Source of the DNA: Alphaproteobacteria bacterium
Lineage (GTDB): Bacteria; Pseudomonadota; Alphaproteobacteria; UBA2966
NCBI GenBank assembly: GCA_964291395.2
Contig: OZ219858.1
Location: 1,184,001-1,248,000, forward strand
DNA length: 64,000 nt
Direction: 5' to 3'
Shown: positions 43,325 to 62,738 of the stretch, piece by piece
Position numbering within the stretch: position 1 is the stretch's first letter
Layout of the letters: every line of letters begins with the position of its first letter
Translations under genes and position numbers: made by a program
The notes under the pieces: generated by a model
Database searches by the model: none
What the model was told of the DNA's origin: nothing
The model's input: only the letters and a program-made list of their open reading frames with translations

Positions 43325-44710
43325 ATGGCCGTTCAAGAGCTCGACCCCGGCCAACGCGAGCTACGGAAGAAGCCGTTCAGCGGGTACCACTCGCGGGAGA
43401 TCACGGAGCCCGACGCCTTGCTGACGGAGACCGGGCCCCGGACGCCGATGGGCGAGTACTTCCGGCGCTTCTGGCTGCCCATCTGCCTGTCGGATCATCT
43501 CACCGACCTGCCCAAGGCGGTGAAGACGCTCGGTGAGGACCTCGTCGCCTTCCGGGACAAGTCGGGGCGGGCCGGCGTCATGCACCGGCACTGCAGCCAT
43601 CGGGGCACCTCCCTGGAGTACGGCATCGTCTCCGAGCGGGGCATCCGCTGCTGCTATCACGGCTGGCTGTTCGACGTCGACGGCACCATCCTGGAAACAC
43701 CGGGCGAACCGCCCGATTCGAGATTGAAGGACAGTTTCTTCCACGGTGCCTATCCGGCGACCGAGATCCACGGCATGGTCTGGGCCTACATGGGCCCTCC
43801 CGACCTGATCCCGGACAAGCCACACCTCGATTTCTTCGAGATGCCGGGCGTCAGGCTCATCCCCTTCGCCCTGCCGTACGAGAGCAACTGGCTGAACTCG
43901 CAGGAAAACTCCATGGACCCGTTCCACGCCGTGTTCCTGCACGGCACCGACGGCCAGCACTTTCAGAACCCGTCGATCGGCCTTCATCCCAACATCAAGT
44001 GGCGGATCACGGGCGCCGGCAACGGCATGGTCTACATGTCCGTACGCCGTCTCGACGACGACTGGATCTGGGCGCGCATGAACTACTGCTACATGCCCTT
44101 CGAGAGCTACGTGCCGACGACCATCGAACTGCCGAAGCCGACCTACTACAATGCGGCGATCTACTTGCGTCAGCACATCCCGGTCGACGACCTCCGGTCG
44201 ATCCTGTTCGGCTGGCGGGCCTACGGCACGGATCGCACCATCGGCCCCGATCACACCCGGAACGGCTGGAACCTGACGGACGTGGACGGCCAGACTCGGC
44301 GCCCCTCCTACGAAGCGGCGCAACGCAAGGCGGGCGACTTCGAGGCCCAGGGCAGCATCTGGTACGGCGTGCCGCGTCCCGCCATTGAGCACAAGGGAAC
44401 CACCGACACCGGTGTCGTCATGATGCGCCGGCAGCTCCGCGAGATACTCGAGGGCGACGTGCCCGCGGCCTGGCCGGAGCCGGCCAAGGGCCACGGGGAG
44501 ACGCCGAAGGCCAGGAAGATCCTGGCCCAGGACTCGGTGCTCAACGTCAGGCGGCGCGCCGGTCCGGACGAGGATTGGGACCTGCTGACCAGGGTGGGCG
44601 AGGAGATCACCGACGCCGTCGTCGAGGGCAGCGACCGATATGACGGCGAGGAGCGGGTCGGCTGGATCGTCGAGCGGGTCAAGGAAATCGAAGCCCGGCA
44701 CCGGGGCTGA
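43325..44710 (+). CDS. Rieske non-heme iron oxygenase alpha subunit (phthalate 4,5-dioxygenase/LigX-like group)
   Basis: Rieske motif CSH...CCYH; mononuclear Fe motif ENSMDPFHAVFLH. Confidence 0.9.
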   Translation: MAVQELDPGQRELRKKPFSGYHSREITEPDALLTETGPRTPMGEYFRRFWLPICLSDHLTDLPKAVKTLGEDLVAFRDKSGRAGVMHRHCSHRGTSLEYGIVSERGIRCCYHGWLFDVDGTILETPGEPPDSRLKDSFFHGAYPATEIHGMVWAYMGPPDLIPDKPHLDFFEMPGVRLIPFALPYESNWLNSQENSMDPFHAVFLHGTDGQHFQNPSIGLHPNIKWRITGAGNGMVYMSVRRLDDDWIWARMNYCYMPFESYVPTTIELPKPTYYNAAIYLRQHIPVDDLRSILFGWRAYGTDRTIGPDHTRNGWNLTDVDGQTRRPSYEAAQRKAGDFEAQGSIWYGVPRPAIEHKGTTDTGVVMMRRQLREILEGDVPAAWPEPAKGHGETPKARKILAQDSVLNVRRRAGPDEDWDLLTRVGEEITDAVVEGSDRYDGEERVGWIVERVKEIEARHRG

Positions 44711-44734
44711 ACCGACGCTTGAGGAGGCGAGTCG

Positions 44735-44824
44735 GTGGACCCGGACGACATCGAGCGCGCGGCGCGCAACCTCCTGGACCACCGCGACTGCGGCCGGAGC
44801 GGGCGCACGTCTGTTCATGTTTAG
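44735..44824 (+). pseudogene. truncated gene start after the Rieske oxygenase (possibly a 2-keto-4-pentenoate hydratase-like N-terminus)
   Basis: Strong GAGGAGG RBS and GTG; MDPDDIERAARNLLDHR then an abrupt stop at the low-GC junction. Confidence 0.35.
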
Positions 44825-44970
44825 CAGTCGTTGCCGGCGAACACTTCCTGGTAGCTCATGCTTTGTGCTTCCGACACCGGATGGACTAATTTTACCGGCG
44901 GTCTCTAGAGGGGATACGTGGCGGGATAGCTACAGCCATATGGCATTTTCCATGCTACAAATCCTAATGA

Positions 44971-44983
44971 AATCAGTCTGTTA
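44971..44983 (+). promoter_or_regulatory. IHF consensus site
   Basis: AATCAG-TCTG-TTA matches WATCAR-N4-TTR within an AT-rich patch. Confidence 0.45.
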
Positions 44984-45029
44984 CCTAGATTCCAATACCT
45001 CCGACATCGGAACAGAAAGCCCCAAAGGA

Positions 45030-45260
45030 GTCGGAGGCTTCGCATTCGAACTCCACGAGGACGGACAGATCGTCGTCAGCCGTGCCGACGCCGAGCATGA
45101 AGATCCGGCGATCGGTGCGTTCCTGGATCTGCTCGCCGGTGATATCCGGGCCGGTCGGCATGTTCGGGCAATTCCGGACGATCTGGCACAGGACATGCTC
45201 GAACATGCGCAGTGTGAAGCGGGACCGGACGAGGACATCGACGGCGACGTCGCCCTCTGA
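45030..45260 (+). pseudogene. prlF: PrlF/SohA antitoxin lacking most of its N-terminal AbrB domain
   Basis: AFELHEDGQIVVSRADAEHEDPAIGAFLDLLAGDI...DIDGDVAL; TGATG coupling to yhaV; upstream in-frame sequence is unrelated. Confidence 0.75.
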
Positions 45261-45844
45261 TGCGGCGCCACGGATGGACGCTGGTGTTCCACGATTGCCT
45301 CATCGACCAGCTGCGCAAGCTCCGCCACGCAGTCCAACGCGCGCAACGAAGTGGTCCGGCGGGGTTCGCATCCAATGTGAACGTCAAGCTGTTCCGCGCG
45401 CTGAGCCGGTTGATGCTGGAAGTCATCCCGCAGGATCCATCCCGGGGCGAGCACCGCCAGAGTGGCACGCTCGGCCCACGTTGCCGCCATTGGCGGCGCA
45501 CCAGGATCGGCAGACGGTTTCGATTGTTCTTCCGCTACGACGCGAGGGCGAAGGTGATCGTCTACGCGTGGGTCAATGACCAATCCACGCTGCGCTCCTC
45601 GGGGAGCAGAACCGATCCGTACTCGGTCTTCGCCAGGAAGCTCACGCGGGGAAATCCGCCCGACGACTGGGCCTCATTGATGAGGCTTCAAGGCAAGATT
45701 GGCAGGCGGGGAAGTAACCGCCATCAGACTGTGTCGGCCCGCGAAGGGGCGGAAATCCTCCAGAGAATACTCTCGGAATTCGCCACCGGGCGGCCGCGAC
45801 GATTTCCACCGGGCAAGCGGAGAATGCATGCGGCCTCGATTTGA
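45260..45844 (+). CDS. yhaV: YhaV-family toxin (RNase); C-terminal tail probably frameshifted (expected stop ~45717)
   Basis: Motifs HGWTL, IPQDP, RFRLFFRYD, VIVYAWVND, GNPPDDW. Confidence 0.88.
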   Translation: MRRHGWTLVFHDCLIDQLRKLRHAVQRAQRSGPAGFASNVNVKLFRALSRLMLEVIPQDPSRGEHRQSGTLGPRCRHWRRTRIGRRFRLFFRYDARAKVIVYAWVNDQSTLRSSGSRTDPYSVFARKLTRGNPPDDWASLMRLQGKIGRRGSNRHQTVSAREGAEILQRILSEFATGRPRRFPPGKRRMHAASI

Positions 45845-46231
45845 GCAGTTCCCGTTGTCGAACGATCCCGTCGCCGCGCCGAACGAATTCCGCCTCGAGC
45901 AGATGAGCGCCGGCATCGGAAAGTTCGAGTTCAGCAAAGACGTTGCCGCTGCCGCGTTCTATGCGGGCTGAATCCGCTTCCGTACCTGCAACTCAGTCAG
46001 TTGCCGTTGGCACCTGAGACGCGATGGCGATACGATTCCTTGCTTCACATCAATGGGTTGGGACGGTTCACACCGGAATCTCAATCAAGTGTCGGTCTCG
46101 GTGGTTGCGGGCCCCGGCTCAAAACGTTCTGTGCAGCAACATTCGGCGGGTCAGGCGGCGTCCCGGATACAGCAATGGCGGGTTTCGCGCTCGCTCTGGT
46201 TGCAACCTCGCTCCCGACCCACTTGGCTATG

Positions 46232-47719
46232 TCAACCCGAATGCGCCTGCGGAACCGCCTTGGCGATTTTTTCGATCCCTTCCGAAATAAGGGATTCGCC
46301 GATCACCGAATATCCCAGGCGGATGTGGTTGCGGTTGTTTTTTTCGTCCGAGAAGGTGAAACCGCCGGTCTCGAAGAACACGCCGTCGGCCTCGACCAGA
46401 TCGCGCAGGATGTCCGCATCCGACTCCTCCGGCAGGCGAAGCCAGATGATCGCACCGCCGTATTCCGGTTTGGCCGAAGCCCCCGGAAAATGGAACTCGA
46501 GCGCATCGTGCATCACTTCGCAGCGCTGCTTGTAGATCTTGGTGAGCTTGGCGACGAAGCGATCGAAATACCCCCGCTGGAGGAACAGCGCCACGCTCCG
46601 CTGGTTGTTCACCGGTGGGTGGCGAATGAGATGGTGGCGGAGCGCCCGCGCTTCCCGGATGAACTCCCGATCCGCAACCAGGTAGCCAATGCGCAGCCCG
46701 GGCATCAGGGACTTGGAGAGGGTGCCGATATAGATGACGTTGCCCCAGCCATCGAGGCCCTTCAGCGCCTGCGGCGGGGTCAGGTCGAAGCTGATGTCGG
46801 ATTCGTAGTCGTCCTCAATCACGAACTGGCCGTTCCGCTTGGTGATTTCCAGCAGTTCGAGCTTTCGATCGAGCGGCATTGTGATGGTCGTCGGAAACTG
46901 GTGGGTCGGGGTGACGAACAGACACTTGCAGTCGTTCAGCGCGTCGGACAGCACCAGCCCGTCCCGGTCGACCGGGAGCCGTCGCACACGCACGCGTTCC
47001 ATGCTCGCCATGTTGATGGCATCCGGATAGCCCGGGTCCTCGACACCGATGATTTCCCCTGGCGAGAGCAGCAGCCGGATGGCCAAATAGAGGGCCTGTT
47101 GGCCTCCCACCGTGACCAGGACCTCGTCGGGGTGCGCGACGATGCCGCGTTTCGAGAGTACGCGCTGGATGAGCTGTTCGATCAGCATCTGATCGTCCGT
47201 TTCCGAATAGTCCGCGGCCCAGTTTCTTACCTCGACAACGTTGACGGAATCGCGAACGCACTCGCGCCAGCTTTGGATCGGAAACAGCGACGGGTCTATC
47301 AACCCGCATACGAAGGGATAGCGGTACCGGACCAGGCAATCCGCGGGCTTCGCCACGTGCTGGAGGTCGAAGCTGCGGTCCCTGAAGAACGCGCGGTAGT
47401 CGATCCTGTCGCGCGGAACCGCCAGCTCAGCTGGTGCGTCCGGCTTCAGCGCGTGACCCGGATCGGTGAGAACGTCCGGGTTTATGAAGAAGCCCGAGCG
47501 GTTCCTAGACTCCACGAAGCCGTCCTGCTTGAGCCCGTCATAGGCCAGCGCGACCGTGGTCACGCTCACCTTCAGCTCCGTCGATAGCTGGCGAATCGAC
47601 GGTAGCGGTCGATGCAGCGGGTATTGGCGATTGACGATGCCGATCGCGATCTGGCGCCGGATCTGCTTCTGAATGCTCTCCGGCGACTCACGGTCGATCA
47701 CGATCATGTTCTCGTACAT
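46232..47719 (-). CDS. MocR/GabR-family PLP-dependent regulator (TauR-like)
   Basis: GntR wHTH LPSIRQLS...VSVTTVALAY; motifs YRYPFVCG, IEDDY, SKSLMPGLRIGY. Confidence 0.92.
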   Translation of the reverse strand: MYENMIVIDRESPESIQKQIRRQIAIGIVNRQYPLHRPLPSIRQLSTELKVSVTTVALAYDGLKQDGFVESRNRSGFFINPDVLTDPGHALKPDAPAELAVPRDRIDYRAFFRDRSFDLQHVAKPADCLVRYRYPFVCGLIDPSLFPIQSWRECVRDSVNVVEVRNWAADYSETDDQMLIEQLIQRVLSKRGIVAHPDEVLVTVGGQQALYLAIRLLLSPGEIIGVEDPGYPDAINMASMERVRVRRLPVDRDGLVLSDALNDCKCLFVTPTHQFPTTITMPLDRKLELLEITKRNGQFVIEDDYESDISFDLTPPQALKGLDGWGNVIYIGTLSKSLMPGLRIGYLVADREFIREARALRHHLIRHPPVNNQRSVALFLQRGYFDRFVAKLTKIYKQRCEVMHDALEFHFPGASAKPEYGGAIIWLRLPEESDADILRDLVEADGVFFETGGFTFSDEKNNRNHIRLGYSVIGESLISEGIEKIAKAVPQAHSG

Positions 47720-47757
47720 CGGGCAATTTCCCTCGACTGCGGCGATCCAGAGCGCCT

Positions 47758-47789
47758 CTGTATGTAATTCATTTTCTGACTGTATATAG
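47758..47789. promoter_or_regulatory. direct repeat, putative MocR-regulator operator
   Basis: CTGTATGTAA (47758) and CTGTATATAG (47780), 22-bp period, between the divergent genes. Confidence 0.5.
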
Positions 47790-47893
47790 GAGCCCGTTCG
47801 GACCCGCCATAGGCTCGCTCGCACCCACATCGTGCGAGGAGGCGGACCGTGCGGTCACCGCTTCCTCGGATCGGGAATTTCCGGGGAGCAGGT

Positions 47894-48523
47894 ATGCGGA
47901 GCGACGAACAATATCTCGGGATCGAGCGCTCTTTGCAGCGTGCCTGGGCCAAGGGCGCCGGGCTGATCGACGAGGAGTTCGAGCGGCCGATGATCGCGGT
48001 CGTGAACACCTGCCAGGAATTCTCGCCCGAGAACATCCATCTCCGGCAGGTGGGGGATGCGGTCAAGGCGGGCATCCGCATGGCCGGCGGCACGCCCTGC
48101 GAGTTCAACACCTTCCACGTCACCGACTCAGAGACCTTCGCCTCGGTCGGCATGCGCTACGTACTTCCGAGCCGCGACCTCGTGGCCGACATGATCGAGC
48201 TGATGGTCGAGGGCCACCGCTTCGACGCGATGGTGCTGATCGGCTCGGGAGACAAGGTTGTGCCCGGGATGGTGATGGCGGCCGCCCGCCTCGACCTCCC
48301 CTCCATCCTGCTCTATGGCGGGCCGATTGCGCTCGTGGAGGATGAGGATCCGATTCGGATCGACCTGTCGGAACGCAGACTGGACCTGGACGTGGCGCCA
48401 GCGGTGCTGGAGGAGCGCCGGAGCCGGTACGCGCCCATGCCGCCCCGGGTCGCGCGTAGCTATCTCAAGCACTACGCGGACACCGTGGCGCCCGCATCGG
48501 AAGGGGCGGTGATGCCCCGCTAG
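47894..48523 (+). pseudogene. IlvD/Edd-family dehydratase with a large in-frame internal deletion
   Basis: N-terminal motifs (MRYVLPSRDLVAD, DKVVPG, AARLDLP..YGGP) joined directly to the C-terminal GGPIALV...ASEGAV. Confidence 0.88.
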
Positions 48524-48526
48524 GCG

Positions 48527-49641
48527 ATGGACAGCCCAATACACATCGCCGTTGGCGACCGCGCTGAGAGCCCGGCCCCGCCATGCCCGGCCCGGGCGGC
48601 ACACAGCAAGGCCACGGGTAGCGTCGTCACAAACGCCGCGTCGACCGGTATCGGGATCGACCGCAAGCGGTTGAAGGCGCTGGCGCGCCGCAGCAATACG
48701 CCCGGGTTGATCTATCTGACTATCTGGGGTGCCGCGCTGGCGATCACCGGTATCGGGGTCTGGTGCACGCTGGGCACGGTCTGGGTCTGGCCGGCGATGT
48801 TCGTCTTTGGCGTGGCGATGTCGGTCCCGTCCTACGCGCTGAGCCACGAGACCGCACATGGGACGGCGTTCCGGACACGCTGGCTCAACGAGACCGTGTT
48901 CTGGTTCACCTCGCTGCTTTACGGCGAGGAGCCGCTGCACCGGCGCTACACCCACACAAACCACCACACCCACACCTGGTATGTCGGCCTCGACAGCCAG
49001 ATGCCGTTCGACACGCCGCTCGACTTCAGGGCTGGCTCTACGACATCAGCGGCCTCTCGGTGCACCGGTTCCAGGGCCGCGTGCTTTGGCAGCTCGCGAC
49101 CAGGCGCTACACGCGGCTGATGCGCGAGGTGTCGCCGGCCGCCGAGCTGTCCAAGATGACGCGCAACGCACGCCTGTTCGCGCTGGTCTATCTCGGCCTC
49201 GCCGGGGCGATCGCCGCCGGCGTCCCGTGGCCGCTCTGGTTCTACGTGCTGCCGCGGCTGCTCGGCGGCCCGATCATGCTGATGTTCAACATCGTCCAGC
49301 ACGCTGAGATGCAGGAGGACTCGCCCTCGATCGTCGAGAGCACGCGGAGCTTCCGTACGGATCGGGTGGGGCGGTTCCTCTACCTCAACATGAACAACCA
49401 CATCGAGCACCACCTCTACCCGCAGGTGCCGTTCTATTCGCTGCCGGCGCTGCACGGAGAGGTGGCAGACCAGACCCCGGAACCCGATCCCGGCTTCTGG
49501 CGCACCAATCTCGATCTCCTCTGGGTGGTGATCCGGCGGTCGCTCGGGCGCCGCACCAAGGCGGCCTGGATCCGCCAGGCGCCGCACATGATCACCGAGG
49601 GCGGCGGCTATTCGACGATCGCAAAGGCGACGATGCAGTGA
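48527..49641 (+). CDS. fatty acid desaturase-family membrane diiron oxygenase (MocD-like); 1-bp frameshift at GGG 49029-49031
   Basis: His boxes HETAH, HTNHH, QH, HIEHH; adding one G joins both ORFs (FRGWLY). Confidence 0.85.
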
Positions 49642-50480
49642 AGCGCAAGCGCATCTACAGCTATGGTGGCAAGTCGGCAACGCGAAATTTTACCGTCGCC
49701 GACATGATCGCGCTCAAGGGTAAGGCGAGGCTCTGCCAGACCTGCCCGGCCACCGAGGAAGAGGCGGCGGCCTGCGAAGCGGTCGGCATCGACGTGCTGA
49801 ACACCTCGGATGCCGACTACCCGGCGGTTCGCGCCGGCGCGCCCGAGACGTTCACCATCGCCGACCTGCCCATGACGGCGCACCAGACGCCGGACGACAT
49901 CCTGCGCGCGGCGGTCAGAGCGGCCGAGGCCGGGGCCGATGCGGTCTACACGCCGCGCAGCCTGCAAACCGTCGAGATGCTGGCGCGGGAGGGTCTGGCG
50001 GTGCAGGGCCATCTCGGTCTGGTACCCAGGCTTTCCACCTGGCGCGGCGGGCTCCGCATCGTCGGCAAGACGGCGGAAGAAGCCCTCGAGCTCTTGGAGG
50101 ATTTTCGCCGGCTCGAGGATGCCGGCGCCTACGCGGCCGAGGTCGAGTGCGTGGCCGCCGAGGCGCTGGCCGCGATCGCCCCGCGATCGAGGCTGGTAAC
50201 CCACTCGATCGGCGCCGGTCCGGCGGGCGACGTGATCTTCATGTTTCTGGTCGACATCTGCGGCGAGCTGGAACGGTCCCCAGGCCACGCCCGGGCATTT
50301 GCTGACCTGCGGTCGATCCGTCAGCAGATCGTTGCCGAGCGTCGGCGCGCGCTCGGCGAGTACCGGGCGGCGGTGACAGACGGCAGTTATCCGGACGCCG
50401 AGATCTCGGTGTCCATGCTGGTGGGCGAGCACGAAAAGCTGGTCGAGGCGCTGGATGCGCGCCCGGTCTTCGCGTCGTGA
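49638..50480 (+). CDS. divergent PanB-like (ketopantoate hydroxymethyltransferase fold) protein
   Basis: Motifs GHLGLVP, GKTAEEA, LEDAGA..EVECV and SIGAG retained; TAYD, GDS and KLEG absent. Confidence 0.8.
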   Translation: MKRKRIYSYGGKSATRNFTVADMIALKGKARLCQTCPATEEEAAACEAVGIDVLNTSDADYPAVRAGAPETFTIADLPMTAHQTPDDILRAAVRAAEAGADAVYTPRSLQTVEMLAREGLAVQGHLGLVPRLSTWRGGLRIVGKTAEEALELLEDFRRLEDAGAYAAEVECVAAEALAAIAPRSRLVTHSIGAGPAGDVIFMFLVDICGELERSPGHARAFADLRSIRQQIVAERRRALGEYRAAVTDGSYPDAEISVSMLVGEHEKLVEALDARPVFAS

Positions 50481-50490
50481 GGGTGTGACG

Positions 50491-50835
50491 ATGGCCGATT
50501 GGATTCACGCCTGCGCCTGTGACGAGATCGACGAAGAGGACCTCATCCGCTGGGACCACGGGGGCCGAACCTACGCGATCTACAACGCCGAGGATGAGTT
50601 CTACTGCACCGACGGCATGTGCACCCACAAGGCGACGCATCTCGAGCAAGGGCTGCTCACGGGACACGTCATCGAGTGCCCGCTGCACCAGGGCCGGTTC
50701 GACATCCGCTCCGGCAAGGTGGTCTCGCCGCCGCCCTGCAGGGAACTCAACACCTACCCGGTCAAGACCGAGAACGGACAGGTCTATGTGCAGGTCGGTT
50801 ACCGCAAGGAAGAGGAGAACTGGGAATCGTCCTGA
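50491..50835 (+). CDS. Rieske [2Fe-2S] ferredoxin (MocE-like)
   Basis: Motif TDGMCTH...IECPLHQGRFD. Confidence 0.92.
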   Translation: MADWIHACACDEIDEEDLIRWDHGGRTYAIYNAEDEFYCTDGMCTHKATHLEQGLLTGHVIECPLHQGRFDIRSGKVVSPPPCRELNTYPVKTENGQVYVQVGYRKEEENWESS

Positions 50836-50865
50836 ATTCGTGTGTCTTAAAACGAGGAAACAACT

Positions 50866-51879
50866 ATGCAAAACTCGCTGAGAAAATGGCTAATCCACGG
50901 TCTGGCTGCCACGGCAATTGCGGCTGCCGGAGCGGCGATGCCGGCACAGGCGAAGGAGAAGTTCATCTTCGCCCACGCCATGAACACCGATCACGTCTTC
51001 CACGCGCTGTCCGAACGCTTCATCTCGGAGCTGAAGGGCAACAAGGCGATCTCGATCGCCTATCACCCGGGCGGCGATCTGGGCGACTGGACGTCGCTGT
51101 TCGAGCAGTCGATGCAGGGCGTCGTTCCGATGACCCTGACCTGGGCGTCGTCCGATTTCGACAAGCGTCTGGACCTCATCTATCTCGGCTACATCGTGTC
51201 CAACTGGAAGGATGCGAAGAAGCTCTATGGACCGGGTGCCGACATGCTCGGGGTCTACAACGACATGCTCGGCGATCTCGGCCTGCACGCGGTCGGCATC
51301 ATCCCGACCGATTTCGGCTCTGTGGTGATCCGCAAGGGCGTCGGCAAGCTGCCGCTTAACTACCCGGGCGACCCGAAGGGTATGAAGATTCGGGTACCAG
51401 GGCTTTCGATCGCCGTCGACCGTTTCAACAGCCTGGGCTTCGCGGCCGTACCGATCCCGCTCTCCGAGGTCCATACCGCGCTGCAGCTCGGCACCGTGGA
51501 TGCGCGTTCGTTCTCGACCGCTGTCGAGACCTACACGCTGCGCGACGTGCTGGAGGCAAACATCCTCACCAACGACTATTTCGAGGTTGCCTTCTGGCTG
51601 GTCAACAAGAAGTGGTGGGACGGGCTCCCGGCCGACGTGCGCGGCGCGTTGCAGGGTGCGGCCGACAACACCATCGCCTGGTCCTGGGAGGAAGCGGAGC
51701 GCAAGAGCAACGAGTTTCTGCAAAAGGCGCGCGACGCCGGCATTAAGGTCGTCGAACTGAACGACGCGCAGATGAGTGCTGCCAAGCAGATCGTCTACGA
51801 CAAGGAGTGGCCAAAGATGGAGTCCGTCGTCGGTAAGGCGACAATGGACAAGATCAGGAAGATCGTCGGTGTCAAGTAG
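50866..51879 (+). CDS. dctP: TRAP transporter substrate-binding protein
   Basis: Signal peptide; motifs GMKIRVP and SEVHTALQLGTVD. Confidence 0.92.
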   Translation: MQNSLRKWLIHGLAATAIAAAGAAMPAQAKEKFIFAHAMNTDHVFHALSERFISELKGNKAISIAYHPGGDLGDWTSLFEQSMQGVVPMTLTWASSDFDKRLDLIYLGYIVSNWKDAKKLYGPGADMLGVYNDMLGDLGLHAVGIIPTDFGSVVIRKGVGKLPLNYPGDPKGMKIRVPGLSIAVDRFNSLGFAAVPIPLSEVHTALQLGTVDARSFSTAVETYTLRDVLEANILTNDYFEVAFWLVNKKWWDGLPADVRGALQGAADNTIAWSWEEAERKSNEFLQKARDAGIKVVELNDAQMSAAKQIVYDKEWPKMESVVGKATMDKIRKIVGVK

Positions 51880-51884
51880 TGTGA

Positions 51885-51930
51885 ACCGGGACGTGTCCCG
51901 GTAAACCACCCGGGCGCCTCGGCGCCCGGG
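51885..51930 (+). other. two stem-loops between dctP and dctQ (mRNA stabiliser or partial terminator)
   Basis: ACCGGGAC-GT-GTCCCGGT and CCCGGGCGCC-TC-GGCGCCCGGG. Confidence 0.55.
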
Positions 51931-51956
51931 CAGTCCATTGAGCACGAGGCGCGCAG

Positions 51957-52601
51957 ATGGACAGGAAATCGGAACAGCACCCGCGCCCGCCGGTCGGCGC
52001 GGACTCCTTTATCTACGATCCTGAGCTCGCATCCTCGGAGCCGCCGCCGCATCTGACAGCGATTCCGGAGGGCGCGCTGGCGGAGAGACTGCGGTTGCTT
52101 ATCGCCGTCGAGGCGGTTTTCGAGCGGATATTTTACGTCTTCATCATCGCGTTCGGGCTCTGTCTCGCTGCCCTGATGTTCACCCAGGTGGTGCTCCGAT
52201 ACGTCTTCGCATCGCCCTTCGTCGGCATCGAGGAGCTCTCGCTCCTGTTCGGCGCTTGGTTCTACTTCCTCGGCATCGCCTATGTAACGCGGAACGGCGA
52301 GCACATACATGGCGGCATCCTGACCATGGTGGTGGCGAACCGGAACGCGATACGCGCGGTCCGGCTCGCCATGACCGTGCTCGGCATCGCGGCCTGCGTG
52401 GTGTTCGGTTACTTCGCCATCAACTATGCCCTGTTTGAGATCCAGACCGGCCGGCTCAGCTCCTACATGCGCTGGCCCAAGGGCTGGTGGTCGGCGTCCC
52501 TCATCATCGGCTTCATCGGCACCGCGTTGTACATGGTGCTCCAGGCCGTGAACCAGGCGGTCGACCTCGTCGTCTACCTGCGCGAGGAGACGGAGGTATA
52601 G
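51957..52601 (+). CDS. dctQ: TRAP transporter small permease
   Basis: Motifs QVVLRYVF, EELS, GEHI; four TM segments. Confidence 0.9.
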   Translation: MDRKSEQHPRPPVGADSFIYDPELASSEPPPHLTAIPEGALAERLRLLIAVEAVFERIFYVFIIAFGLCLAALMFTQVVLRYVFASPFVGIEELSLLFGAWFYFLGIAYVTRNGEHIHGGILTMVVANRNAIRAVRLAMTVLGIAACVVFGYFAINYALFEIQTGRLSSYMRWPKGWWSASLIIGFIGTALYMVLQAVNQAVDLVVYLREETEV

Positions 52602-52603
52602 CC

Positions 52604-53908
52604 ATGCTGGCCTTCGTGATCTCCCTTGCGCTCATCGTCTTGCTGTTGCTCGCGGAGATGCCGATCGCCTTCGCCTTCGGGATCGGCGCGCTGGTCTTCG
52701 GCGTCTGGTCGGGATCGGACGTGTCATTCCTCATCCCCTACGCTTACCAGACCACCTCAAGCTTCGCCCTGCTCGCCTTGCCCCTGTTCGTCATGGCCGG
52801 GACGCTGATGGCACAGGGCGGGATCTCGGACCGCCTTCTCGCCTTCGTCAACGCCTTCATCGGCCGGCTCAAGGGCGGGCTCGGGGCTGTGACGGTGGTG
52901 ACCTGTGCGCTGTTCGGGGCGATCTCCGGCTCGTCGTCGGCCGCCATCGCGGCGATCGGCCAGATCATGATCCCGCGTATGATCAAGGAGGGATATCCGG
53001 CCGGCCACGCCACCGCGCTGGTCGCCTGCTCGTCGGTCCTCGCGTTGATGATTCCGCCCTCGATCCCGATGATCGTCTTCGCGGTGACCGGGGGGATTTC
53101 CGTAGGTGCGGCCTTCCTCTCGACCGTGATCCCGGGCGCCATCCTGACCCTCGTCTATGTCGGTCTTAACTTTCTGTTCCTGAGAAAGGTCGACACGATC
53201 ACCGTCGAGGAGCGGATTTCTCTGCCACAGGCGGTGAGGCGGATCGGCCGGACCGGCAAGGAAGCCTTCTGGGCGCTGCTGATGCCGGTCATCATCCTCG
53301 GGACCATCTACTCCGGCATCGCCACGCCGACCGAGGCCGCCGCCATTGCGCTGGTCTTCGCGCTTGCCGTTGGGTTCCTGATCTATCGCGGGCTCACGTT
53401 CAGCAACTTCCCCTCGACCATGGCCCGCGCCGCGATCACCACCGGATCGATCGTCGCCGTGCTGTTCTTCCTGTTCGTGATGAGCCGCGCGATGATCCTC
53501 CAGCAGGTGCCGAAGGAGGTCGCCGACACGCTGGTCGCGTTGACCGAGAACCGGATCCTCGCGCTGCTGATCATCAACGTCATTCTGCTGCTGATCGGCA
53601 TGATCGTCGACGACGTGTCCGGCAGCGTCCTTGCCGCAATCGTCCTGTTGCCGGTGGCAACGGAGATCGGTGTGCATCCCATCCACTTCGCGGCCATCGT
53701 CGGCACCAATCTCGGCCTGGGCAACGTTTCGCCGCCCTGCGCGCCGATGCTCTACATGGCGGCCGGGGTGAGCAAGCTCACGCTGGACAAGTACTTCATG
53801 CCGACCATGAAACTCCTGACGTTCGGCCACCTTCCGATGGTACTCATCGTCACATTCATCCCCGAACTCTCGCTCACCCTGCCGAGGATGATCCTGGGGA
53901 TCGCGTAG
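52604..53908 (+). CDS. dctM: TRAP transporter large permease
   Basis: Motifs LLALPLF, GAISGSS, IPPSIP, ATPTEA, SPP. Confidence 0.93.
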   Translation: MLAFVISLALIVLLLLAEMPIAFAFGIGALVFGVWSGSDVSFLIPYAYQTTSSFALLALPLFVMAGTLMAQGGISDRLLAFVNAFIGRLKGGLGAVTVVTCALFGAISGSSSAAIAAIGQIMIPRMIKEGYPAGHATALVACSSVLALMIPPSIPMIVFAVTGGISVGAAFLSTVIPGAILTLVYVGLNFLFLRKVDTITVEERISLPQAVRRIGRTGKEAFWALLMPVIILGTIYSGIATPTEAAAIALVFALAVGFLIYRGLTFSNFPSTMARAAITTGSIVAVLFFLFVMSRAMILQQVPKEVADTLVALTENRILALLIINVILLLIGMIVDDVSGSVLAAIVLLPVATEIGVHPIHFAAIVGTNLGLGNVSPPCAPMLYMAAGVSKLTLDKYFMPTMKLLTFGHLPMVLIVTFIPELSLTLPRMILGIA

Positions 53909-53979
53909 TCGAACGAAGCGCGCCGCTTGAGACGGCGTACCACGTCGTCGTCGAGTTGCCGCACGTTGATGGTCGCCAT
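53909..53979 (-). pseudogene. FitA/Arc-like ribbon-helix-helix antitoxin remnant
   Basis: MATINVRQLDDDVVRRLKRRAS, cut off at the dctM stop. Confidence 0.7.
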
Positions 53980-53997
53980 CGCACTGTTTTCCAGCAC

Positions 53998-54018
53998 ATG
54001 CTATCAAAATGACGGCAT
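53998..54018. promoter_or_regulatory. FitA-type operator inverted repeat
   Basis: ATGCTATCA-AAA-TGACGGCAT directly upstream of the remnant. Confidence 0.5.
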
Positions 54019-54126
54019 GCCGTGCCGGAACGGCAAGCGCCACGTCGGCGAGCAATGGGACCTTTGTGTTCACCGCCCGACCGCTTCCCGTGCCGACGCC
54101 CGGAAGCCGCGTAAAGCGCGGGGCTC

Positions 54127-55443
54127 TCAGAAGAAGACGTAGGAGCGGACCACGACGTTCTTGCGGCAGGGCGCGTCGGCGGGCGCGGTCGGGTCGATGC
54201 AGGCCGTGTGGAAGGACCAGCGCGACACGGAGCCGTCGGTGACGGAGTCGTAGCACTTGAGCATCGAGACTTCGGTCGGTTTCTGCCGGGGAAACCAGTA
54301 CCACTCGTGGTCGGGGCGGTAGGTGAAGCGGGTGGTCTCACCGACGCGGTCGTCGTAGACGCGATAGTTCGTGATGTAGGGCTGGTCGGCGAAAGAGGGC
54401 CAGGCGCACAGCACGAAGGGGAACTGACCCACGGTCTCCATCGGCTTGGCAAGGTTGAGCGACATGAAGCGCCGCGACATCTTCGCTTCGGCCTCCGCCT
54501 CCGTGTAATGCTGCTCGCGCCCGAAGTTCCGCAGATTCATCGTCAGCAGCTCGCGGCAGCGCACGCGGCCGCTGTTGTCGTTCAGGTCGTTGTGCACGAG
54601 GTTGACGTAACTGGCGTTCACGCCCGGGTTCTTGGCGTCCTGGTCTTCCGTGCGGTCGCCCTGATAATCCTTGTCGAAGACGTCGTGGTTGTAGACGAGC
54701 GCATCGGTGGCATCCGGGAAAAACTCCAGAAGGAGCTTCTCGATCTCCGGGTAGAACACACGCTCCACCTCCGCCGAGTCGTAGAAGTTCCTGCAACTGG
54801 ACTTGAAGTGGGCCAGGGAGACGCCAAGCTTGTCCATACATTCGGGACTGTCGACCGATAGACCCGGATAGTACTCTCCGATGCGCCGCCCATCGCGCAC
54901 CACCTGCGGGAAGTAGAGACTGCGATCCCGGTTGTACTCTTCGGCCTCGCCCAACAGCTTCGCCTCGGCCTCACGCGCCGGATCCTGCCAGAGCGAGTTG
55001 GACGGCACGATGATGTAGGACGGTCGCTCGTAGACGGTGTAGCGCAGCGGAAGCGCCAAGCCGCCTTCAGGGGCTTCGATCTTGTTCGCCAGAATATAGT
55101 CGAGGCAGTCCTCATACTCACGGAATCCAAGGCCCCACTTGGTCTCGATGGGTCCCTGGGGCGTACTTTCGATCCAATCGATAAACGCTTTCGCATGCCC
55201 TTCGGCAATCTGGTCGAGCGCCGCCTCGATCGCCGCGCCTGTTCCCGCATCTCCGTCCCGATCGAATGACATGTAGGACAATCCGCCATTCGCTGCGATG
55301 GGCGGGGGCTGTCCTTCCGTGAGTTGGAGGGGCGGCACATAGACCGATGAACATGCCTCCTCATCCGTGGCAACGTGATCCTCGATGGTTTCGTGAGGTT
55401 TCAAAGCATGTCCTCCGGTCAAAGACCCGTCGTCACGATACAT
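54127..55443 (-). CDS. CmcJ/NvfI-like oxidoreductase with long N-terminal extension
   Basis: Motifs FYPEIEKLL, VHND, WYWFP, LKCYDS, FHTA, VVRSYVFF; start uncertain. Confidence 0.7.
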   Translation of the reverse strand: MYRDDGSLTGGHALKPHETIEDHVATDEEACSSVYVPPLQLTEGQPPPIAANGGLSYMSFDRDGDAGTGAAIEAALDQIAEGHAKAFIDWIESTPQGPIETKWGLGFREYEDCLDYILANKIEAPEGGLALPLRYTVYERPSYIIVPSNSLWQDPAREAEAKLLGEAEEYNRDRSLYFPQVVRDGRRIGEYYPGLSVDSPECMDKLGVSLAHFKSSCRNFYDSAEVERVFYPEIEKLLLEFFPDATDALVYNHDVFDKDYQGDRTEDQDAKNPGVNASYVNLVHNDLNDNSGRVRCRELLTMNLRNFGREQHYTEAEAEAKMSRRFMSLNLAKPMETVGQFPFVLCAWPSFADQPYITNYRVYDDRVGETTRFTYRPDHEWYWFPRQKPTEVSMLKCYDSVTDGSVSRWSFHTACIDPTAPADAPCRKNVVVRSYVFF

Positions 55444-56595: not shown

Positions 56596-57762
56596 CTAAA
56601 AGCTCGCGCCGGCGATGCCGATGGTGGATTGTCCGGTGCCGAAAAGTTCCGTGTAGGTGGCCTTGCCGTTGGCGACGGCGAGGATCTCCTCGTAGATGCG
56701 CCGGCCGCCTTCCTCGATCGAGATCTCTCCGGTCAGGATGCCGCTCACCGAGACGTCCAGGTCGTCCGGCGCGTTCCCGGCCGTCGCAGGGTTGCCGCTG
56801 ATCTTGACCGTGGGGACGAACGGATGCGCCGAGGGCTGTCCGAGGCCGGTGTTGAACCCGATGATCTGGGCCCCGCCGGCCGCCAGGCCCGTCATCGACT
56901 CGCAGGCCGGCGACGGCGTGCTCATGAAATAAAAGCCGGGCGGGTCGGGGATGACCGGGTCGCAGTACCCCACGACGCCCTGCAGGGGCTTGCTGCCGCC
57001 TTTCTTGACCGCGCCGAGGGACTTTTCCGCAAGCGTCGTCAGGCCGCCCTCGATGTTGTCGGCCGAAGGATTGCCGCGGCGGATGTCGGGGACACCCGCC
57101 CGGCGGGCCAGCTCCTCCATCTCGGCGATGGCGTCGATGATATCGGAGGCCGCCTTGTCGTCGACGGCACGCTCGGCCATGAGGTGTTCGGCCCCCATGA
57201 TCTCGGCGGTCTCCGACAGCACGACCGAGCCGCCGGCCTCCATGAGCAGGTCCGCGGCGTGGCCGAGGGCGGGATTCCCGGCGATGCCGCTCGAGAAGTC
57301 GGAGCCGCCGCACTCGACCCCCATGACGAGACTGGAGAGCGGCTGCTCGCTGCGCTGTACGCCGGATACCTTCTTGGCCATCTTCGCGGCGATCAGCGTG
57401 CCCTGTTCGATGGTGCGGAGCGTGCCGCCGATGTCCTGATAGACGACACACTCCACGTCCTTGCCCGCCGCGGCGATGGGTTCGGCGAACGTCTCGGCGG
57501 AGACACCGTGGAGCGTCACCAGGATCACGCCGCCGAGATTCGGGTTCGTGGCCATGCCATGGATCGCCTTGAGACGCATTTCGTGGTTGAGCCCGATCAG
57601 CTTGCGGCCGAAGAGGTCGGTGACGAGCTCGGTGCCGCGGACGTTCCCGGCGATCTTGCGGGAGATGCCGTTGACGTTGTCCATCAGCGCGATGACGCCG
57701 ACGGTGTTCCGGATGCCGGCGGACCCGTCGCTGCGCGGATAACCATGGAACATGGGGCTCAC
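56596..57762 (-). CDS. UxaA-family dehydratase/sulfo-lyase large subunit (SuyB-like)
   Basis: Motifs GYPRSDGSAGIRN, NPN, ECGGSD, SETAE, GGLTTLAEKSLGA. Confidence 0.85.
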   Translation of the reverse strand: MSPMFHGYPRSDGSAGIRNTVGVIALMDNVNGISRKIAGNVRGTELVTDLFGRKLIGLNHEMRLKAIHGMATNPNLGGVILVTLHGVSAETFAEPIAAAGKDVECVVYQDIGGTLRTIEQGTLIAAKMAKKVSGVQRSEQPLSSLVMGVECGGSDFSSGIAGNPALGHAADLLMEAGGSVVLSETAEIMGAEHLMAERAVDDKAASDIIDAIAEMEELARRAGVPDIRRGNPSADNIEGGLTTLAEKSLGAVKKGGSKPLQGVVGYCDPVIPDPPGFYFMSTPSPACESMTGLAAGGAQIIGFNTGLGQPSAHPFVPTVKISGNPATAGNAPDDLDVSVSGILTGEISIEEGGRRIYEEILAVANGKATYTELFGTGQSTIGIAGASF

Positions 57763-58259: not shown

Positions 58260-59603
58260 TCAATGCATCCTTGCGCCCGGAGGGCAAAGTCGCTCCGCGG
58301 GATGCGCGAACCCGGTTTGAGCCATCTCTTCCAGCAGCATAGCGATGACGTGCTTTCGCCCCAAGCGCTGCGCCGAATCGGCCAGGATCTGCGTAAACAG
58401 ATTGCGCTGGGCGTGGCTGCCGCCGATCTGCCACAGGCTGTGCCGCGCCGGCAGCAGGTTTCCAAGCACCGCTTCATGGTCGCCGCGCTGGTGCGCGATG
58501 GCACCCTCCGCCGCCGGCAGGACCGCCGAGCGAACGCGGGCCGCGTTGTTGGTCTCGTCCGTGGACGCGTAGCCCCGCAGGGCCGTCAGGTAAGCTTCCA
58601 GGGCCGCGTCGCGGCCGGCCGCCGCCAAGGCGGTCGCGACATGGGCGCTGGAGAGCGGCGCGGCATGGTTGCCGATACGATCTTCGGCGAGATCGGCTAC
58701 CGCCTCCCAACGGTCGCCGACGTCGTACCCGTACATGTCGAGATGCTTCAACAGGTCGACGGCATTCTGAAAATCGCCGTAATGACCGGGATTGGCCCTG
58801 ATCAGCGGTGCCTCGGGATTGTGGACGTCGCGGTCGTAGATCTCCAGGACCGTGCCGAACTCACCCCGCAGCAGGTGGAACAGGCTGCGGTGCCACCACA
58901 AATGATGCACGAAGTTGTTGAGTTCCGCCCAATGGTCCTTGAGGCCATCGAGCCAGGCGATGCCGTCCTCGTGGCGTCCCTGCATCTCCATGACATGGGC
59001 GACCGCGTGCGCGCCCCAGCCGTTCGTGGGGTCGCGCTCCACCGCGTCACGCCCGTACCGTTCGGCGTCGGCGTAGAGGCCGTTCTCCTCGCAGCCGAAG
59101 GCGCGCATCGCCTGGAACGCGCTGAAACCGGGCACGTCGGTGGACCAGGCCGGTGCGCCGCGCTCGACGATATTGCGCATCCACACGGACTCGCCGATCC
59201 AGAACAACTCGAACTGGGCCAGGCGATGGGCTAGCAGGTCGCGAGGATTAGCCGCCAGGATCATCTCGTAATGGCTGACCGCATCCAGGGTGCGGCCGCG
59301 GATCAAGGCCGAGAGCGCCGCCAGGTAGCCCTTTTCCCGCTCGGTGGCGCCGCCGCTCGCCGCTTCCGCGGCATCCAATTCGGCTTGCGCTTCCCGATAG
59401 CGATGCGGCAGTCGGACGCCGACGATGAGCAGGCCCTTCATGACGCGTGCCAGAACGCAGCCGGGGTCCGCCTCCAGCGCCGCGTTCACGTGAGCCATGG
59501 TGTCCAACCTGTGACTGACGAGACTCGCGGCCGCGCGGCTCAACGCCTCGGCGGCGCCGGCGCTCGACGTCGTCAGTTCCAGGCCGCGGTCGTCGCGTTG
59601 CAC
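58260..59603 (-). CDS. TTC38-like tetratricopeptide repeat protein
   Basis: Motifs PRDLLA, AFGCEE, WGAHAVAHVMEM, HLWWH, IGGSHAQR. Confidence 0.88.
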   Translation of the reverse strand: MQRDDRGLELTTSSAGAAEALSRAAASLVSHRLDTMAHVNAALEADPGCVLARVMKGLLIVGVRLPHRYREAQAELDAAEAASGGATEREKGYLAALSALIRGRTLDAVSHYEMILAANPRDLLAHRLAQFELFWIGESVWMRNIVERGAPAWSTDVPGFSAFQAMRAFGCEENGLYADAERYGRDAVERDPTNGWGAHAVAHVMEMQGRHEDGIAWLDGLKDHWAELNNFVHHLWWHRSLFHLLRGEFGTVLEIYDRDVHNPEAPLIRANPGHYGDFQNAVDLLKHLDMYGYDVGDRWEAVADLAEDRIGNHAAPLSSAHVATALAAAGRDAALEAYLTALRGYASTDETNNAARVRSAVLPAAEGAIAHQRGDHEAVLGNLLPARHSLWQIGGSHAQRNLFTQILADSAQRLGRKHVIAMLLEEMAQTGFAHPAERLCPPGARMH

Positions 59604-61146: not shown

Positions 61147-61346
61147 GTCGATTCCTCTCGCAGAAGACCGATGGAGCGCGAGTGCAACGATTTCGCGAAG
61201 CCGGGTCGGACCTTCGGCCCCCGAGGGCCGCCGCAACCGTCTCGAGGAGGATGATATCCGCTCGGCAAGGGTCATGCCTAGCGTGTTTCCAGTTCGGTTG
61301 AAACCGCCGGAGGGCGACTCGGCGACGTCTCCGAATCCACCCCCTT

Positions 61347-62665: not shown

Positions 62666-62738
62666 GGGCCCTCGGCGTCGTGATCGGCAGGACGTTCGGA
62701 AGCACTCCCTTCGAAGTCTTGCTTGCGGAGACGACCGG

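Follow-up and report, generated by a model that had tools for sequence, protein, structure and literature searches.

A probable moc-type oxygenase cluster with a non-canonical PanB-like protein, and its possible role in oxidative demethylation

What does a relative of ketopantoate hydroxymethyltransferase (PanB) do next to an oxygenase? This question is raised by a locus in the genome of an alphaproteobacterium (NCBI GenBank assembly GCA_964291395.2; GTDB lineage Bacteria; Pseudomonadota; Alphaproteobacteria; UBA2966). We analyzed 64,000 nucleotides (nt) of its contig OZ219858.1 (positions 1,184,001 to 1,248,000 of the forward strand). We call this whole stretch the window, and coordinates without a prefix count from its first letter. 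In the window, the gene for a MocR-type regulator faces an operon that encodes a remnant of an IlvD-type dehydratase, a membrane di-iron oxygenase, a PanB-like protein, a Rieske ferredoxin, and a tripartite ATP-independent periplasmic (TRAP) importer. A first-pass annotation had proposed that these genes form a catabolic system. Scans against Pfam and NCBIfam bore out all seven gene products and the regulator where it had placed them:

46232..47719, minus strand: MocR-type regulator (PF00392, PF00155; the longest open reading frame (ORF) is 46232-47830)
47758..47813, no strand: candidate operator in the divergent promoter region (conserved columns in orthologous intergenic regions)
47894..48523, plus strand: ilvD remnant (ORF 47849-48523, conserved ATG at 47894; matches the IlvD profile)
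48527..49641, plus strand: membrane di-iron oxygenase of the FA_desaturase family, MocD-like (PF00487, histidine boxes)
49638..50480, plus strand: PanB-like (PanB-fold) protein (PF02548, 110.6 bits, from profile position 69)
50491..50835, plus strand: MocE-family Rieske [2Fe-2S] ferredoxin (PF00355, 67.1 bits; TIGR02377, 137.1 bits)
50866..51879, plus strand: DctP, TRAP solute-binding protein (PF03480, 113.4 bits)
51957..52601, plus strand: DctQ, TRAP small membrane subunit (PF04290, 77.6 bits)
52604..53908, plus strand: DctM, TRAP large membrane subunit (PF06808, 308.2 bits; TIGR00786, 329.1 bits)

This is probably a moc-type, oxygenase-based catabolic cluster, to which a new and conserved enzyme, probably mis-annotated, is joined as a partner. 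As to its function, our proposal is tentative, and we hold it with less than even confidence: a MocR-controlled, horizontally acquired catabolic operon for a small organic acid that is imported by the TRAP system, working by oxidative C-demethylation.

The operon spans 47894-53908 on the plus strand. Its junctions are, in order, a 3-nt gap, a 4-nt overlap, and gaps of 10, 30, 77, and 2 nt. Because the gaps and the overlap are short, we predict a single transcript, and the spacing is compatible with the tightly coupled transcript that the first-pass annotation had described. Scans of 45800-54400 for consensus promoters and terminators gave counts that were not above those for shuffled sequence. 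The set of TRAP components is complete, with matches to PF03480, PF04290, and PF06808. From reading the sequence, we reset the start of DctM to the ATG that follows GGAGG and the stop codon of dctQ; matches of orthologs to DctM start near residue 34-39 of the long ORF. (Contigs from metatranscriptome run X17 overlap parts of the ilvD, oxygenase, and PanB-like genes, which we do not count as expression, as DNA carry-over is possible.)

Is the PanB-like protein a PanB? It matches the Pfam family (PF02548, 110.6 bits against a gathering threshold of 28.7), over profile positions 69-258 only. It misses the cut-offs for PanB itself (96.8 vs. 207.55 bits for TIGR00222 and 97.7 vs. 272 bits for PRK00311), and its identity to canonical PanBs is 23-28%. 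Among solved structures, phmmer matched PanB alone (75.7 bits). The AlphaFold model of the protein (pLDDT of 93.4) is predicted to resemble PanB most closely (Foldseek against the PDB; 1M3U from E. coli and 1OY0 from M. tuberculosis, E-values of 2e-17 to 5e-17, TM-score of about 0.65). The next folds in that comparison were lyases of the ICL/PEP-mutase type, such as methylisocitrate and dimethylmalate lyases (E-values of about 1e-7).

We take the active-site set of E. coli PanB to be D45, D84 (a magnesium ligand), K112, E114, H136, and E181. Counterparts of D84, H136, and E181 are retained (D76, H125, and E170), and K112 and E114 are replaced (by Y104 and P106), so the canonical set is incomplete. 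D58 may be the counterpart of D45, according to the MAFFT alignment only. About 21 residues after the first strand are absent. Conversely, residues that are invariant in the PanB-like family include E42, R65, E97, D101, E168, D206, and H217, of which E168 is specific to the family. In a maximum-likelihood tree (a quick IQ-TREE search with 61 rows and midpoint rooting, from which partial matches of fewer than 200 profile positions were excluded), the 56 PanB-like rows split from five canonical PanBs with an SH-aLRT support of 100. The missed cut-offs, the replacement of K112 and E114, and the alignment bear out the first-pass call of a non-canonical PanB, and the clade appears to be distinct from ketopantoate hydroxymethyltransferase.

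If the protein were instead a divergent ketopantoate hydroxymethyltransferase, then together with the IlvD paralog it would give an extra, regulated supply of 2-oxoisovalerate or ketopantoate (for pantothenate or for salvage of branched-chain precursors), and the oxygenase would be unrelated or accessory. IlvD and PanB do catalyze consecutive steps towards pantoate. The PanB-like gene is the only PanB homolog in 2 of the 5 genomes that we checked, and several PanB-like genes lie in housekeeping-like contexts. Also, in one orthologous locus (L015), a reductase of the PanE/ApbA family is encoded two genes past MocR (L015:1630-2643). But this gene is absent from the window, and L015 is the only one of six window-type loci with scanned flanks (L014-L019) that has a PanE-like gene; neither L020 nor L023 has one. 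The genome under study already holds two canonical-type PanB genes and a housekeeping IlvD. Unlike canonical panB, the PanB-like gene adjoins oxygenases rather than pantothenate genes, and vitamin biosynthesis would not be expected to go together with oxygenase, ferredoxin, and importer genes. With the low score on the PanB equivalog and the two replaced residues as well, we consider this explanation very unlikely.

The gene order provides a second line of evidence. A search with the PanB-like protein alone against one genome per species gave 22 loci. Nine of these have the order IlvD, oxygenase, PanB-like, and seven of the nine also have a divergent MocR gene. The nine loci belong to marine Alpha- and Gammaproteobacteria. 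According to tblastn, the full arrangement (MocR facing IlvD, oxygenase, PanB-like, Rieske, and DctPQM) is present in L014, L015, L017, L018, and L019; L016 and L024 have the same order, interrupted by contig ends. In L020 and L023 (both Arenicellales), the cluster lacks MocR, and AsnC-type and GntR/FCD-type regulators are nearby. To judge from these sequences, the genes share this arrangement far more often than chance would allow.

The window-type cluster recurs in metagenome-assembled genomes (MAGs) from several marine lineages. At least about 100 metagenome protein clusters are 75-91% identical to the PanB-like protein, among the matches listed, and the best match in 40 relatives is 46% identical. 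We scored 8000 candidates for longer, fused forms of the protein and saw none at E ≤ 1e-20, although this is weak evidence; among 120 matches listed is P0104 (388 amino acids), which joins PanB-like and Rieske parts and is either a true fusion or a missed stop. One sponge-metagenome run (X3) has pieces that are about 98% identical to the window. (The 24 run rows listed include nine from sponge metagenomes and two from coral metagenomes, of which X3 and X17 were compared to the window.)

How general is the link to the oxygenase? We detected oxygenases with home-made hidden Markov models (HMMs) for two families, FA_desaturase and sterol-desaturase/FA_hydroxylase, built from 14 and 4 sequences; the partner can come from either one. 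Among 27 PanB-like loci gathered by similarity to the window's protein, and so skewed towards its relatives, 25 have a di-iron oxygenase within 6 kb. L036 and L038 do not, although Pfam detects an FA_desaturase fusion in L036, at a distance of 3.5 kb, that the HMMs missed. Neither of the two loci with only a canonical PanB (L033 and L034) has an oxygenase. We then sampled 400 other genomes evenly across the class; 22 of them have a PanB-like gene (E ≤ 1e-60), and 11 of their 29 loci (30 places) have an oxygenase within 8 kb. As a rough estimate, a few percent would be expected by chance, so the enrichment is real, but it is not universal. The co-occurrence on which the first-pass annotation depended is thus seen in the orthologous loci, in the related loci, and across the class.

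In the tree, the window's protein falls in a clade of 12 rows, all 12 of them adjacent to an oxygenase. A separate clade of eight rows, which includes this genus's own paralog, is linked to an oxygenase in one of the eight. Across 63 loci with at least one full-length PanB-like match, the partner is a membrane di-iron enzyme in 36, and 27 have none. The HMMs are blind to Rieske-type and P450 demethylases, but a Pfam scan of 18 of the 27 partner-less loci, covering ORFs up to about 4 kb from the PanB-like gene, found none of these either. (In L020, an Arenicellales MAG, a gene of the FA_hydroxylase family lies directly upstream of a canonical PanB with 314 bits on PF02548, at L020:14027-15886, a few kb from the window-type cluster. 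So even a canonical-type PanB can adjoin a di-iron enzyme.)

The oxygenase itself has the features of the FA_desaturase superfamily. PF00487 matches both of its halves (29.5 and 86.7 bits), and its translation has the three histidine boxes HETAH, HTNHH, and HIEHH, whose histidines are invariant in 14 homologs. The first-pass annotation overlooked that the gene is in two frames in the window (48527..~49030 and ~49033..49641). The break is due to one base missing in a run of G near 49028-49031. L014 shows the same base loss, and eight other orthologs are in frame. Public contigs in 3 of the 4 runs compared insert an A or a G behind 49027/49028, and one of them (X1 record 4) has the extra base as its sole difference over 49003-49257 (255 nt). 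Because this otherwise identical contig carries the extra base, the frameshift is probably either an assembly error in the homopolymer or a minor variant.

Among NCBIfam models, intact orthologous oxygenases match GntB best (E-values of 8e-12 and 3e-10). We take GntB to be a transmembrane di-iron L-arginine gamma-hydroxylase of guanitoxin biosynthesis, so this fold is presumably able to hydroxylate small polar molecules. The window-type oxygenase is not an ortholog of GntB (40-45 bits vs. a cut-off of 380), and its context is catabolic, not biosynthetic. Its identity to the moc-like oxygenases of inositol clusters in Hyphomicrobiales is about 25-30%. The Rieske protein is above the cut-off for the MocE family, if narrowly (137.1 vs. 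136.15 bits for TIGR02377; 67.1 bits for PF00355), and its gene is conserved downstream of the PanB-like gene in orthologous loci. It is presumed to be the electron donor to the oxygenase. As the first-pass annotation had noted, there is no MocF-type reductase in the cluster, and the best hit of a MocF-like query in the whole genome (tblastn) is 28% identical over part of the query. A predicted complex of the oxygenase and PanB-like protein from L016 scored 0.00 against a mark of 0.32, which is informative neither way. (The genome has a second pair of a desaturase-like protein and a Rieske ferredoxin, at G000:C1:1072485-1073747. These are 34-44% and 41% identical to the window's, and no PanB-like gene adjoins them.)

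The first gene of the operon is shortened. The first-pass annotation called it an ilvD remnant, and in the window it is one; but it is not incidental debris, as an intact IlvD is the conserved first gene of the orthologous clusters. The ORF of 224 amino acids (209 from the conserved ATG) matches positions 1-120 (N domain) and 129-191 (C domain) of the IlvD profile, and joins about the first 144-150 residues of IlvD to about the last 65-67. Comparison to orthologs by tblastn shows that 1,020 nt between the matching parts are missing, an in-frame loss of about 340 codons, so the window copy is not a full-length, two-domain IlvD (TIGR00110/PRK00911). The junction is at 48317-48326, where the two matches overlap by 10 nt. 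The evidence for the deletion is the assembly: among the public contigs listed, none extends 31 nt past 48317-48326 in both directions, and unitigs end at this point.

In all nine of the other IlvD-oxygenase-PanB-like loci, IlvD is full length (about 551 amino acids). It therefore seems that the dehydratase belongs to the system, as a specialized and divergent paralog of IlvD. Both IlvD/EDD domains are found in intact cluster orthologs, which sit right at the threshold of TIGR00110 (618.1-624 vs. 618.15 bits). The genome under study encodes a housekeeping IlvD (contig C1, 1777445-1779076) that scores 697 bits on TIGR00110 and 860 bits on PRK00911, and cluster-type and housekeeping IlvD are only 41% identical. 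The cluster type also travels with the cluster. It is the sole copy of its type in all five of the other cluster-bearing genomes (the next best is 40-41% identical), and it was absent, at E ≤ 1e-150, from 14 relatives (five from the genus, another four from the family, and five from the order).

This genome does have an intact copy of the gene, at G000:C1:944881-946613. Over 47819-48326 (508 nt), the window is 99.6% identical to it, and over 48317-48525, 97.6%. The homology is limited to the gene: it stops about 75 nt before the start codon and 2 nt after the stop codon. The copy (L039/L051/L052) stands alone among unrelated genes, with a sulfatase and an ORF without a Pfam match on one side, and a short ORF without a Pfam match and then a PHO4 transporter on the other. 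Given this near-identical copy, the dehydratase would survive in trans. The window would record a small evolutionary event, the in-frame loss of an operon gene after a gene-sized copy had settled elsewhere in the genome.

A dehydratase next to a PanB-fold protein could also suggest a sugar-acid or hydroxy-acid route in the style of the Dahms or non-phosphorylative Entner-Doudoroff pathways. The IlvD/EDD-family enzyme would then form a 2-keto-3-deoxy (4-hydroxy-2-oxo) acid, the PanB-fold protein would be a class II aldolase that splits this acid to give a 2-oxo acid plus an aldehyde, and the oxygenase would only prepare the substrate, through hydroxylation or demethylation. TRAP systems commonly import sugar acids, and the IlvD/EDD family includes sugar-acid dehydratases (according to NCBIfam). 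PanB belongs to the ICL/PEP-mutase fold class, which stabilizes enolates of 2-oxo acids, and the fold matches that follow PanB are the methylisocitrate and dimethylmalate lyases. Dehydrogenases and TIM-barrel sugar enzymes are often neighbors of PanB-like genes. However, the cluster dehydratase scores 618-650 bits on models for true IlvD and just 186-389 bits on those for arabinonate, xylonate, and gluconate dehydratases, and the orthologous clusters that we scanned share neither a kinase nor an aldehyde dehydrogenase in the operon. We think that this route is quite unlikely. (A gene of the transaldolase/FSA family lies just past the regulator in L014 and L015; it is not in the window.)

The regulator has an N-terminal GntR-type helix-turn-helix domain (PF00392, 44.4 bits) and a domain with the class-I aminotransferase fold (PF00155, 77.8 bits), the architecture of the MocR family. 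The alignment of orthologs places its conserved start at the ATG at 47719. Its best NCBIfam model is PdxR, narrowly above the cut-off (331 vs. 320 bits), and no pdx genes were found nearby. It is well below the cut-off for the equivalog of the rhizopine MocR (239.7 vs. 650 bits). Orthologs in seven loci are 75-80% identical and have the same position. Between the conserved start codons of the divergent genes are 174 bp, which contain a direct repeat with a spacing of 22 nt (CTGTATGTA at 47758-47766 and CTGTATATA at 47780-47788), followed by TAGG elements at 47787-47790 and 47810-47813. The CTGT and TAGG columns are invariant in all seven aligned orthologous intergenic regions, where the mean column identity is 46%. 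These repeats are a plausible candidate for the MocR operator. The homology of the ilvD copy on contig C1 starts downstream of the repeats, and so that copy is probably regulated differently from the operon.

DctP is only distantly related to solved binding proteins (the best is 4ovt, E-value of 4.7e-19), and its further matches are to binders of sialic acid, 2,3-dihydroxypropane-1-sulfonate (DHPS), and isethionate, at about 1e-13. We tried to assign a ligand from these structures, and the matches are too distant for that. Similarly, the support for B6 vitamers, pantoate, carnitine- or dimethylsulfoniopropionate-type compounds, or sulfonates as the substrate is circumstantial: the borderline PdxR score, the PanE-like gene of L015, and a DddP-like M24 protein in L021 (243 vs. 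600 bits). The substrate class put forward in the first-pass annotation, a methylated amino acid or a sulfonate-like solute, likewise finds no direct support.

How might these enzymes work together? PanB chemistry is the reversible transfer of a hydroxymethyl group at C3 of a 2-oxo acid. AlkB, XylM, and sterol C4-methyl oxidase are membrane di-iron methyl hydroxylases. In the scheme that we propose, the imported compound or its first product would be a methyl-branched 2,3-dihydroxy acid. The step from a 2,3-dihydroxy acid to a 2-oxo acid belongs in this model because IlvD is the conserved first gene and an intact copy exists elsewhere: the IlvD paralog would dehydrate the dihydroxy acid to a beta-methyl 2-oxo acid. 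(In this genome, the copy on contig C1 would need to replace the deleted operon gene in trans.) The di-iron enzyme, with electrons from the MocE-type Rieske ferredoxin, would hydroxylate the methyl group to a hydroxymethyl group. The PanB-like protein would then run PanB chemistry in reverse and take the hydroxymethyl group off the carbon next to the 2-oxo group, as formaldehyde or as 5,10-methylene-tetrahydrofolate. The net result would be oxidative C-demethylation to a shorter 2-oxo acid. We infer every chemical step here, as well as the order of the steps, the substrate, and the removal of one carbon by the PanB-like protein, whereas the gene content, the synteny, the island (see below), the protein families, and the non-canonical PanB site are observed.

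We favor C-demethylation for three reasons. First, wherever a partner was found, it is a membrane di-iron enzyme, the classic type of methyl hydroxylase. Second, PanB natively moves a hydroxymethyl group, reversibly, to and from the carbon next to a 2-oxo group. Third, the site around D76 is best preserved where a dehydratase that would form a 2-oxo acid is co-encoded. In alignment A1, all 28 sequences of the window/IlvD-linked group have D76 and the 22 others lack it, which fits a 2-oxo acid supplied as substrate by the dehydratase encoded alongside.

The main rival is O- or N-demethylation. The oxygenase and the Rieske protein would hydroxylate an O- or N-methyl group, the hemiacetal would collapse to formaldehyde, and the PanB-like protein would trap the one-carbon unit, with tetrahydrofolate or a 2-oxo acid (for example, the product of IlvD) as the acceptor; the dehydratase would act on the demethylated diol acid. 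That the ferredoxin is above the MocE-family cut-off speaks for this, and so do the contexts of related modules. In MAGs of Hyphomicrobiales and on plasmids of R. leguminosarum WSM1325 (pR132502) and Marivivens sp. JLT3646, genes for a LacI-type regulator, an FA-desaturase, MocE, an FAD reductase, and the PanB-like protein are found with iolG, iolC, iolD, and a sugar ABC transporter. IolG scores 433 bits in these inositol or sugar clusters, which also have MocF-like reductases, and O-methyl-inositols would be handled there. Bradyrhizobium and Mesorhizobium have the PanB-like protein with an AraC-type regulator, a ribokinase, a sterol-desaturase-family protein, a Rieske protein, and a reductase. 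In Phaeobacter (P. inhibens DOK1-1), it is found with a LysR-type regulator, a MIOX-family protein, and a sterol desaturase. L021 combines a LysR-type regulator, a class II aldolase, an FA-desaturase, the PanB-like protein, the DddP-like protein, and a TRAP system. A partner that handles one-carbon units would explain why the same pair occurs in such varied catabolic contexts and with two oxygenase families.

There is also precedent. In marine bacteria, P450 systems reportedly carry out oxidative demethylation of 6-O-methyl-galactose, linked to detoxification of formaldehyde. As in those loci, an oxygenase, a ferredoxin, and a one-carbon function occur together here; unlike them, the window has a membrane di-iron oxygenase and other one-carbon enzymes, and the P450 systems have no PanB-fold protein. 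On the other hand, capture of free formaldehyde should be indifferent to the type of oxygenase, yet the partner was a membrane di-iron enzyme or none at all, and no other type was seen in the 63 loci. Also, the window clade keeps counterparts of PanB's metal ligands and its catalytic glutamate, which points to enolate chemistry on a 2-oxo acid, and the Pfam scan found no folate-cycle genes in the cluster. O- or N-demethylation fits the inositol contexts, and the range of contexts overall, better than C-demethylation does, but overall we consider it rather doubtful.

Several other observations weigh against C-demethylation. The inositol and sugar clusters carry the module without an obvious 2-oxo-acid substrate, and D76 is lost there too; the correlation with D76 could itself stem from a single evolutionary event. 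The loss of both K112 and E114 could mean that the chemistry is wholly different from that of PanB. Among the 29 loci of the even sample, 18 have no di-iron oxygenase that the HMMs detect, and their surroundings are varied, with several that look like housekeeping, so coupling to an oxygenase seems not to be a property of the PanB-like family as a whole. Given the genomes in which the PanB-like protein is the only PanB homolog, some members may be true ketopantoate hydroxymethyltransferases. MocD, MocE, and MocF of rhizopine catabolism have been proposed as O-demethylases, which would have no need of a retro-aldol step. The MocR regulator, and the AsnC regulator of L020, hint at an amino compound as the effector, which the scheme leaves unexplained. 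Finally, the operon's ilvD is broken in the window, and the Rieske protein has no evident reductase, either in the cluster or, to judge from the tblastn search with the MocF-like query, elsewhere in the genome.

C-demethylation could also be read more widely. PanB-fold proteins and membrane di-iron hydroxylases would together form a new two-enzyme route that removes carbon-bound methyl groups and possibly passes the one-carbon unit straight onto tetrahydrofolate. After hydroxylation of the methyl, reversed PanB chemistry would expel the hydroxymethyl group from its position beside a carbonyl. Marine TRAP clusters would obtain this carbonyl from the IlvD-type dehydratase, and inositol and sugar clusters from IolG, MocA, or SDR dehydrogenases. 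This is a bolder claim, and we regard it as harder to believe than C-demethylation by the window's operon.

The cluster appears to lie on a horizontally acquired island. The stretch at ~44711-54130 has no match in four genomes of the same genus, among the matches listed. The genes that flank it are 13,539 nt apart in the window and 4,976 and 5,785 nt apart in two relatives (G001 and G002). Besides the cluster, the stretch holds a toxin-antitoxin pair at its left edge:

44640..45844, plus strand: PrlF-like antitoxin and YhaV-like toxin (PF15937, 29.7 bits, below the cut-off of 32; PF11663, 170.7 bits)

This pair is a neighbor and not part of the pathway, and it has no match at this position in the four genomes. 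(A stretch on contig C1 is paralogous to it, at 71% identity.)

The island, with its toxin-antitoxin pair and its absence from the four relatives, brings up another question, which is about the state of the window's copy rather than about its chemistry. Could the copy be a decaying, non-functional relic of horizontal transfer? The loss of about 340 codons from ilvD and the out-of-frame oxygenase in the assembly would fit. However, the deletion in ilvD preserves both the reading frame and the 3-nt gap before the oxygenase gene, and the copy on contig C1 is intact and nearly identical over the first 508 nt. The public contig that restores the oxygenase's frame has no other difference over 255 nt, and every other gene has an open frame and is 70-90% identical to its orthologs. 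A relic therefore seems unlikely.

Other genes around the cluster touch on the pathway less directly. To the left is a gene for the large subunit of a Rieske oxygenase (43325-44710, plus strand). Its center (~43400-43950) has dozens of DNA matches of 66-80% identity across this genome and the four others of the genus, which look like a strongly expanded family of paralogs. To the right, all on the minus strand, are genes for a protein of the altronate/galactarate dehydratase family (56596-57762), a LigXa-like Rieske oxygenase (59731-61275), and an AllG-family protein (61412-62800), and two long ORFs with high GC content at third codon positions and no Pfam match (54127-55443 and 58260-59603; 438 and 447 amino acids). 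The first of these ORFs has a DNA match of 80% identity in one genome of the genus. Near orthologous clusters, we noticed an ankyrin-repeat protein (L019:9662-10705, minus strand) and Fic-domain proteins (L017:10653-12185, minus strand, and L020:365-739, plus strand). Genes of both kinds are common in host-associated marine symbionts.

Is the combination known? The closest described system is rhizopine catabolism. Its genes (mocR and mocD/E/F), for the use of 3-O-methyl-scyllo-inosamine, were reportedly found in Sinorhizobium meliloti L5-30 and in Rhizobium leguminosarum (Bahar et al. 1998). The window shares with it a MocR-family regulator, a membrane di-iron protein of the FA_desaturase type, and a MocE-family ferredoxin. 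It differs in that MocA, MocB, MocC, and the MocF reductase are missing, the importer is of the TRAP rather than the ABC type, an IlvD paralog and the PanB-like protein are added, and the regulator falls below the rhizopine-MocR cut-off.

A full-text search of the literature, with supplements outside its scope, gave no description of the oxygenase/PanB-like pairing or of the TRAP/IlvD cluster. This agrees with the first-pass annotation, which did not recognize the combination as a characterized pathway. The passages of papers on MocR regulons (PMC5320631), pinitol (PMC9788770), and rhizopine signaling (PMC6668481) that the search brought up do not mention the pairing, and the supplementary regulon tables of the first could still list the cluster.

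If our proposal is correct, then this PanB-fold family, which is annotated as an enzyme of vitamin-B5 biosynthesis (for instance in plasmid records), is mis-annotated, and its members are instead partners of membrane di-iron oxygenases in the catabolism of nutrients. MocD/MocE-type oxygenases, whose role has long been unclear, would gain a function, and the release of the one-carbon unit, by a folate-linked or aldolase-type reaction, could be of use in biocatalysis. The cluster would also give a handle on a metabolite that is exchanged in such marine communities. And if the C-demethylation route is real, it would open branched and C-methylated acids and cyclitols to catabolism by sponge- and coral-associated bacteria and by rhizobia.

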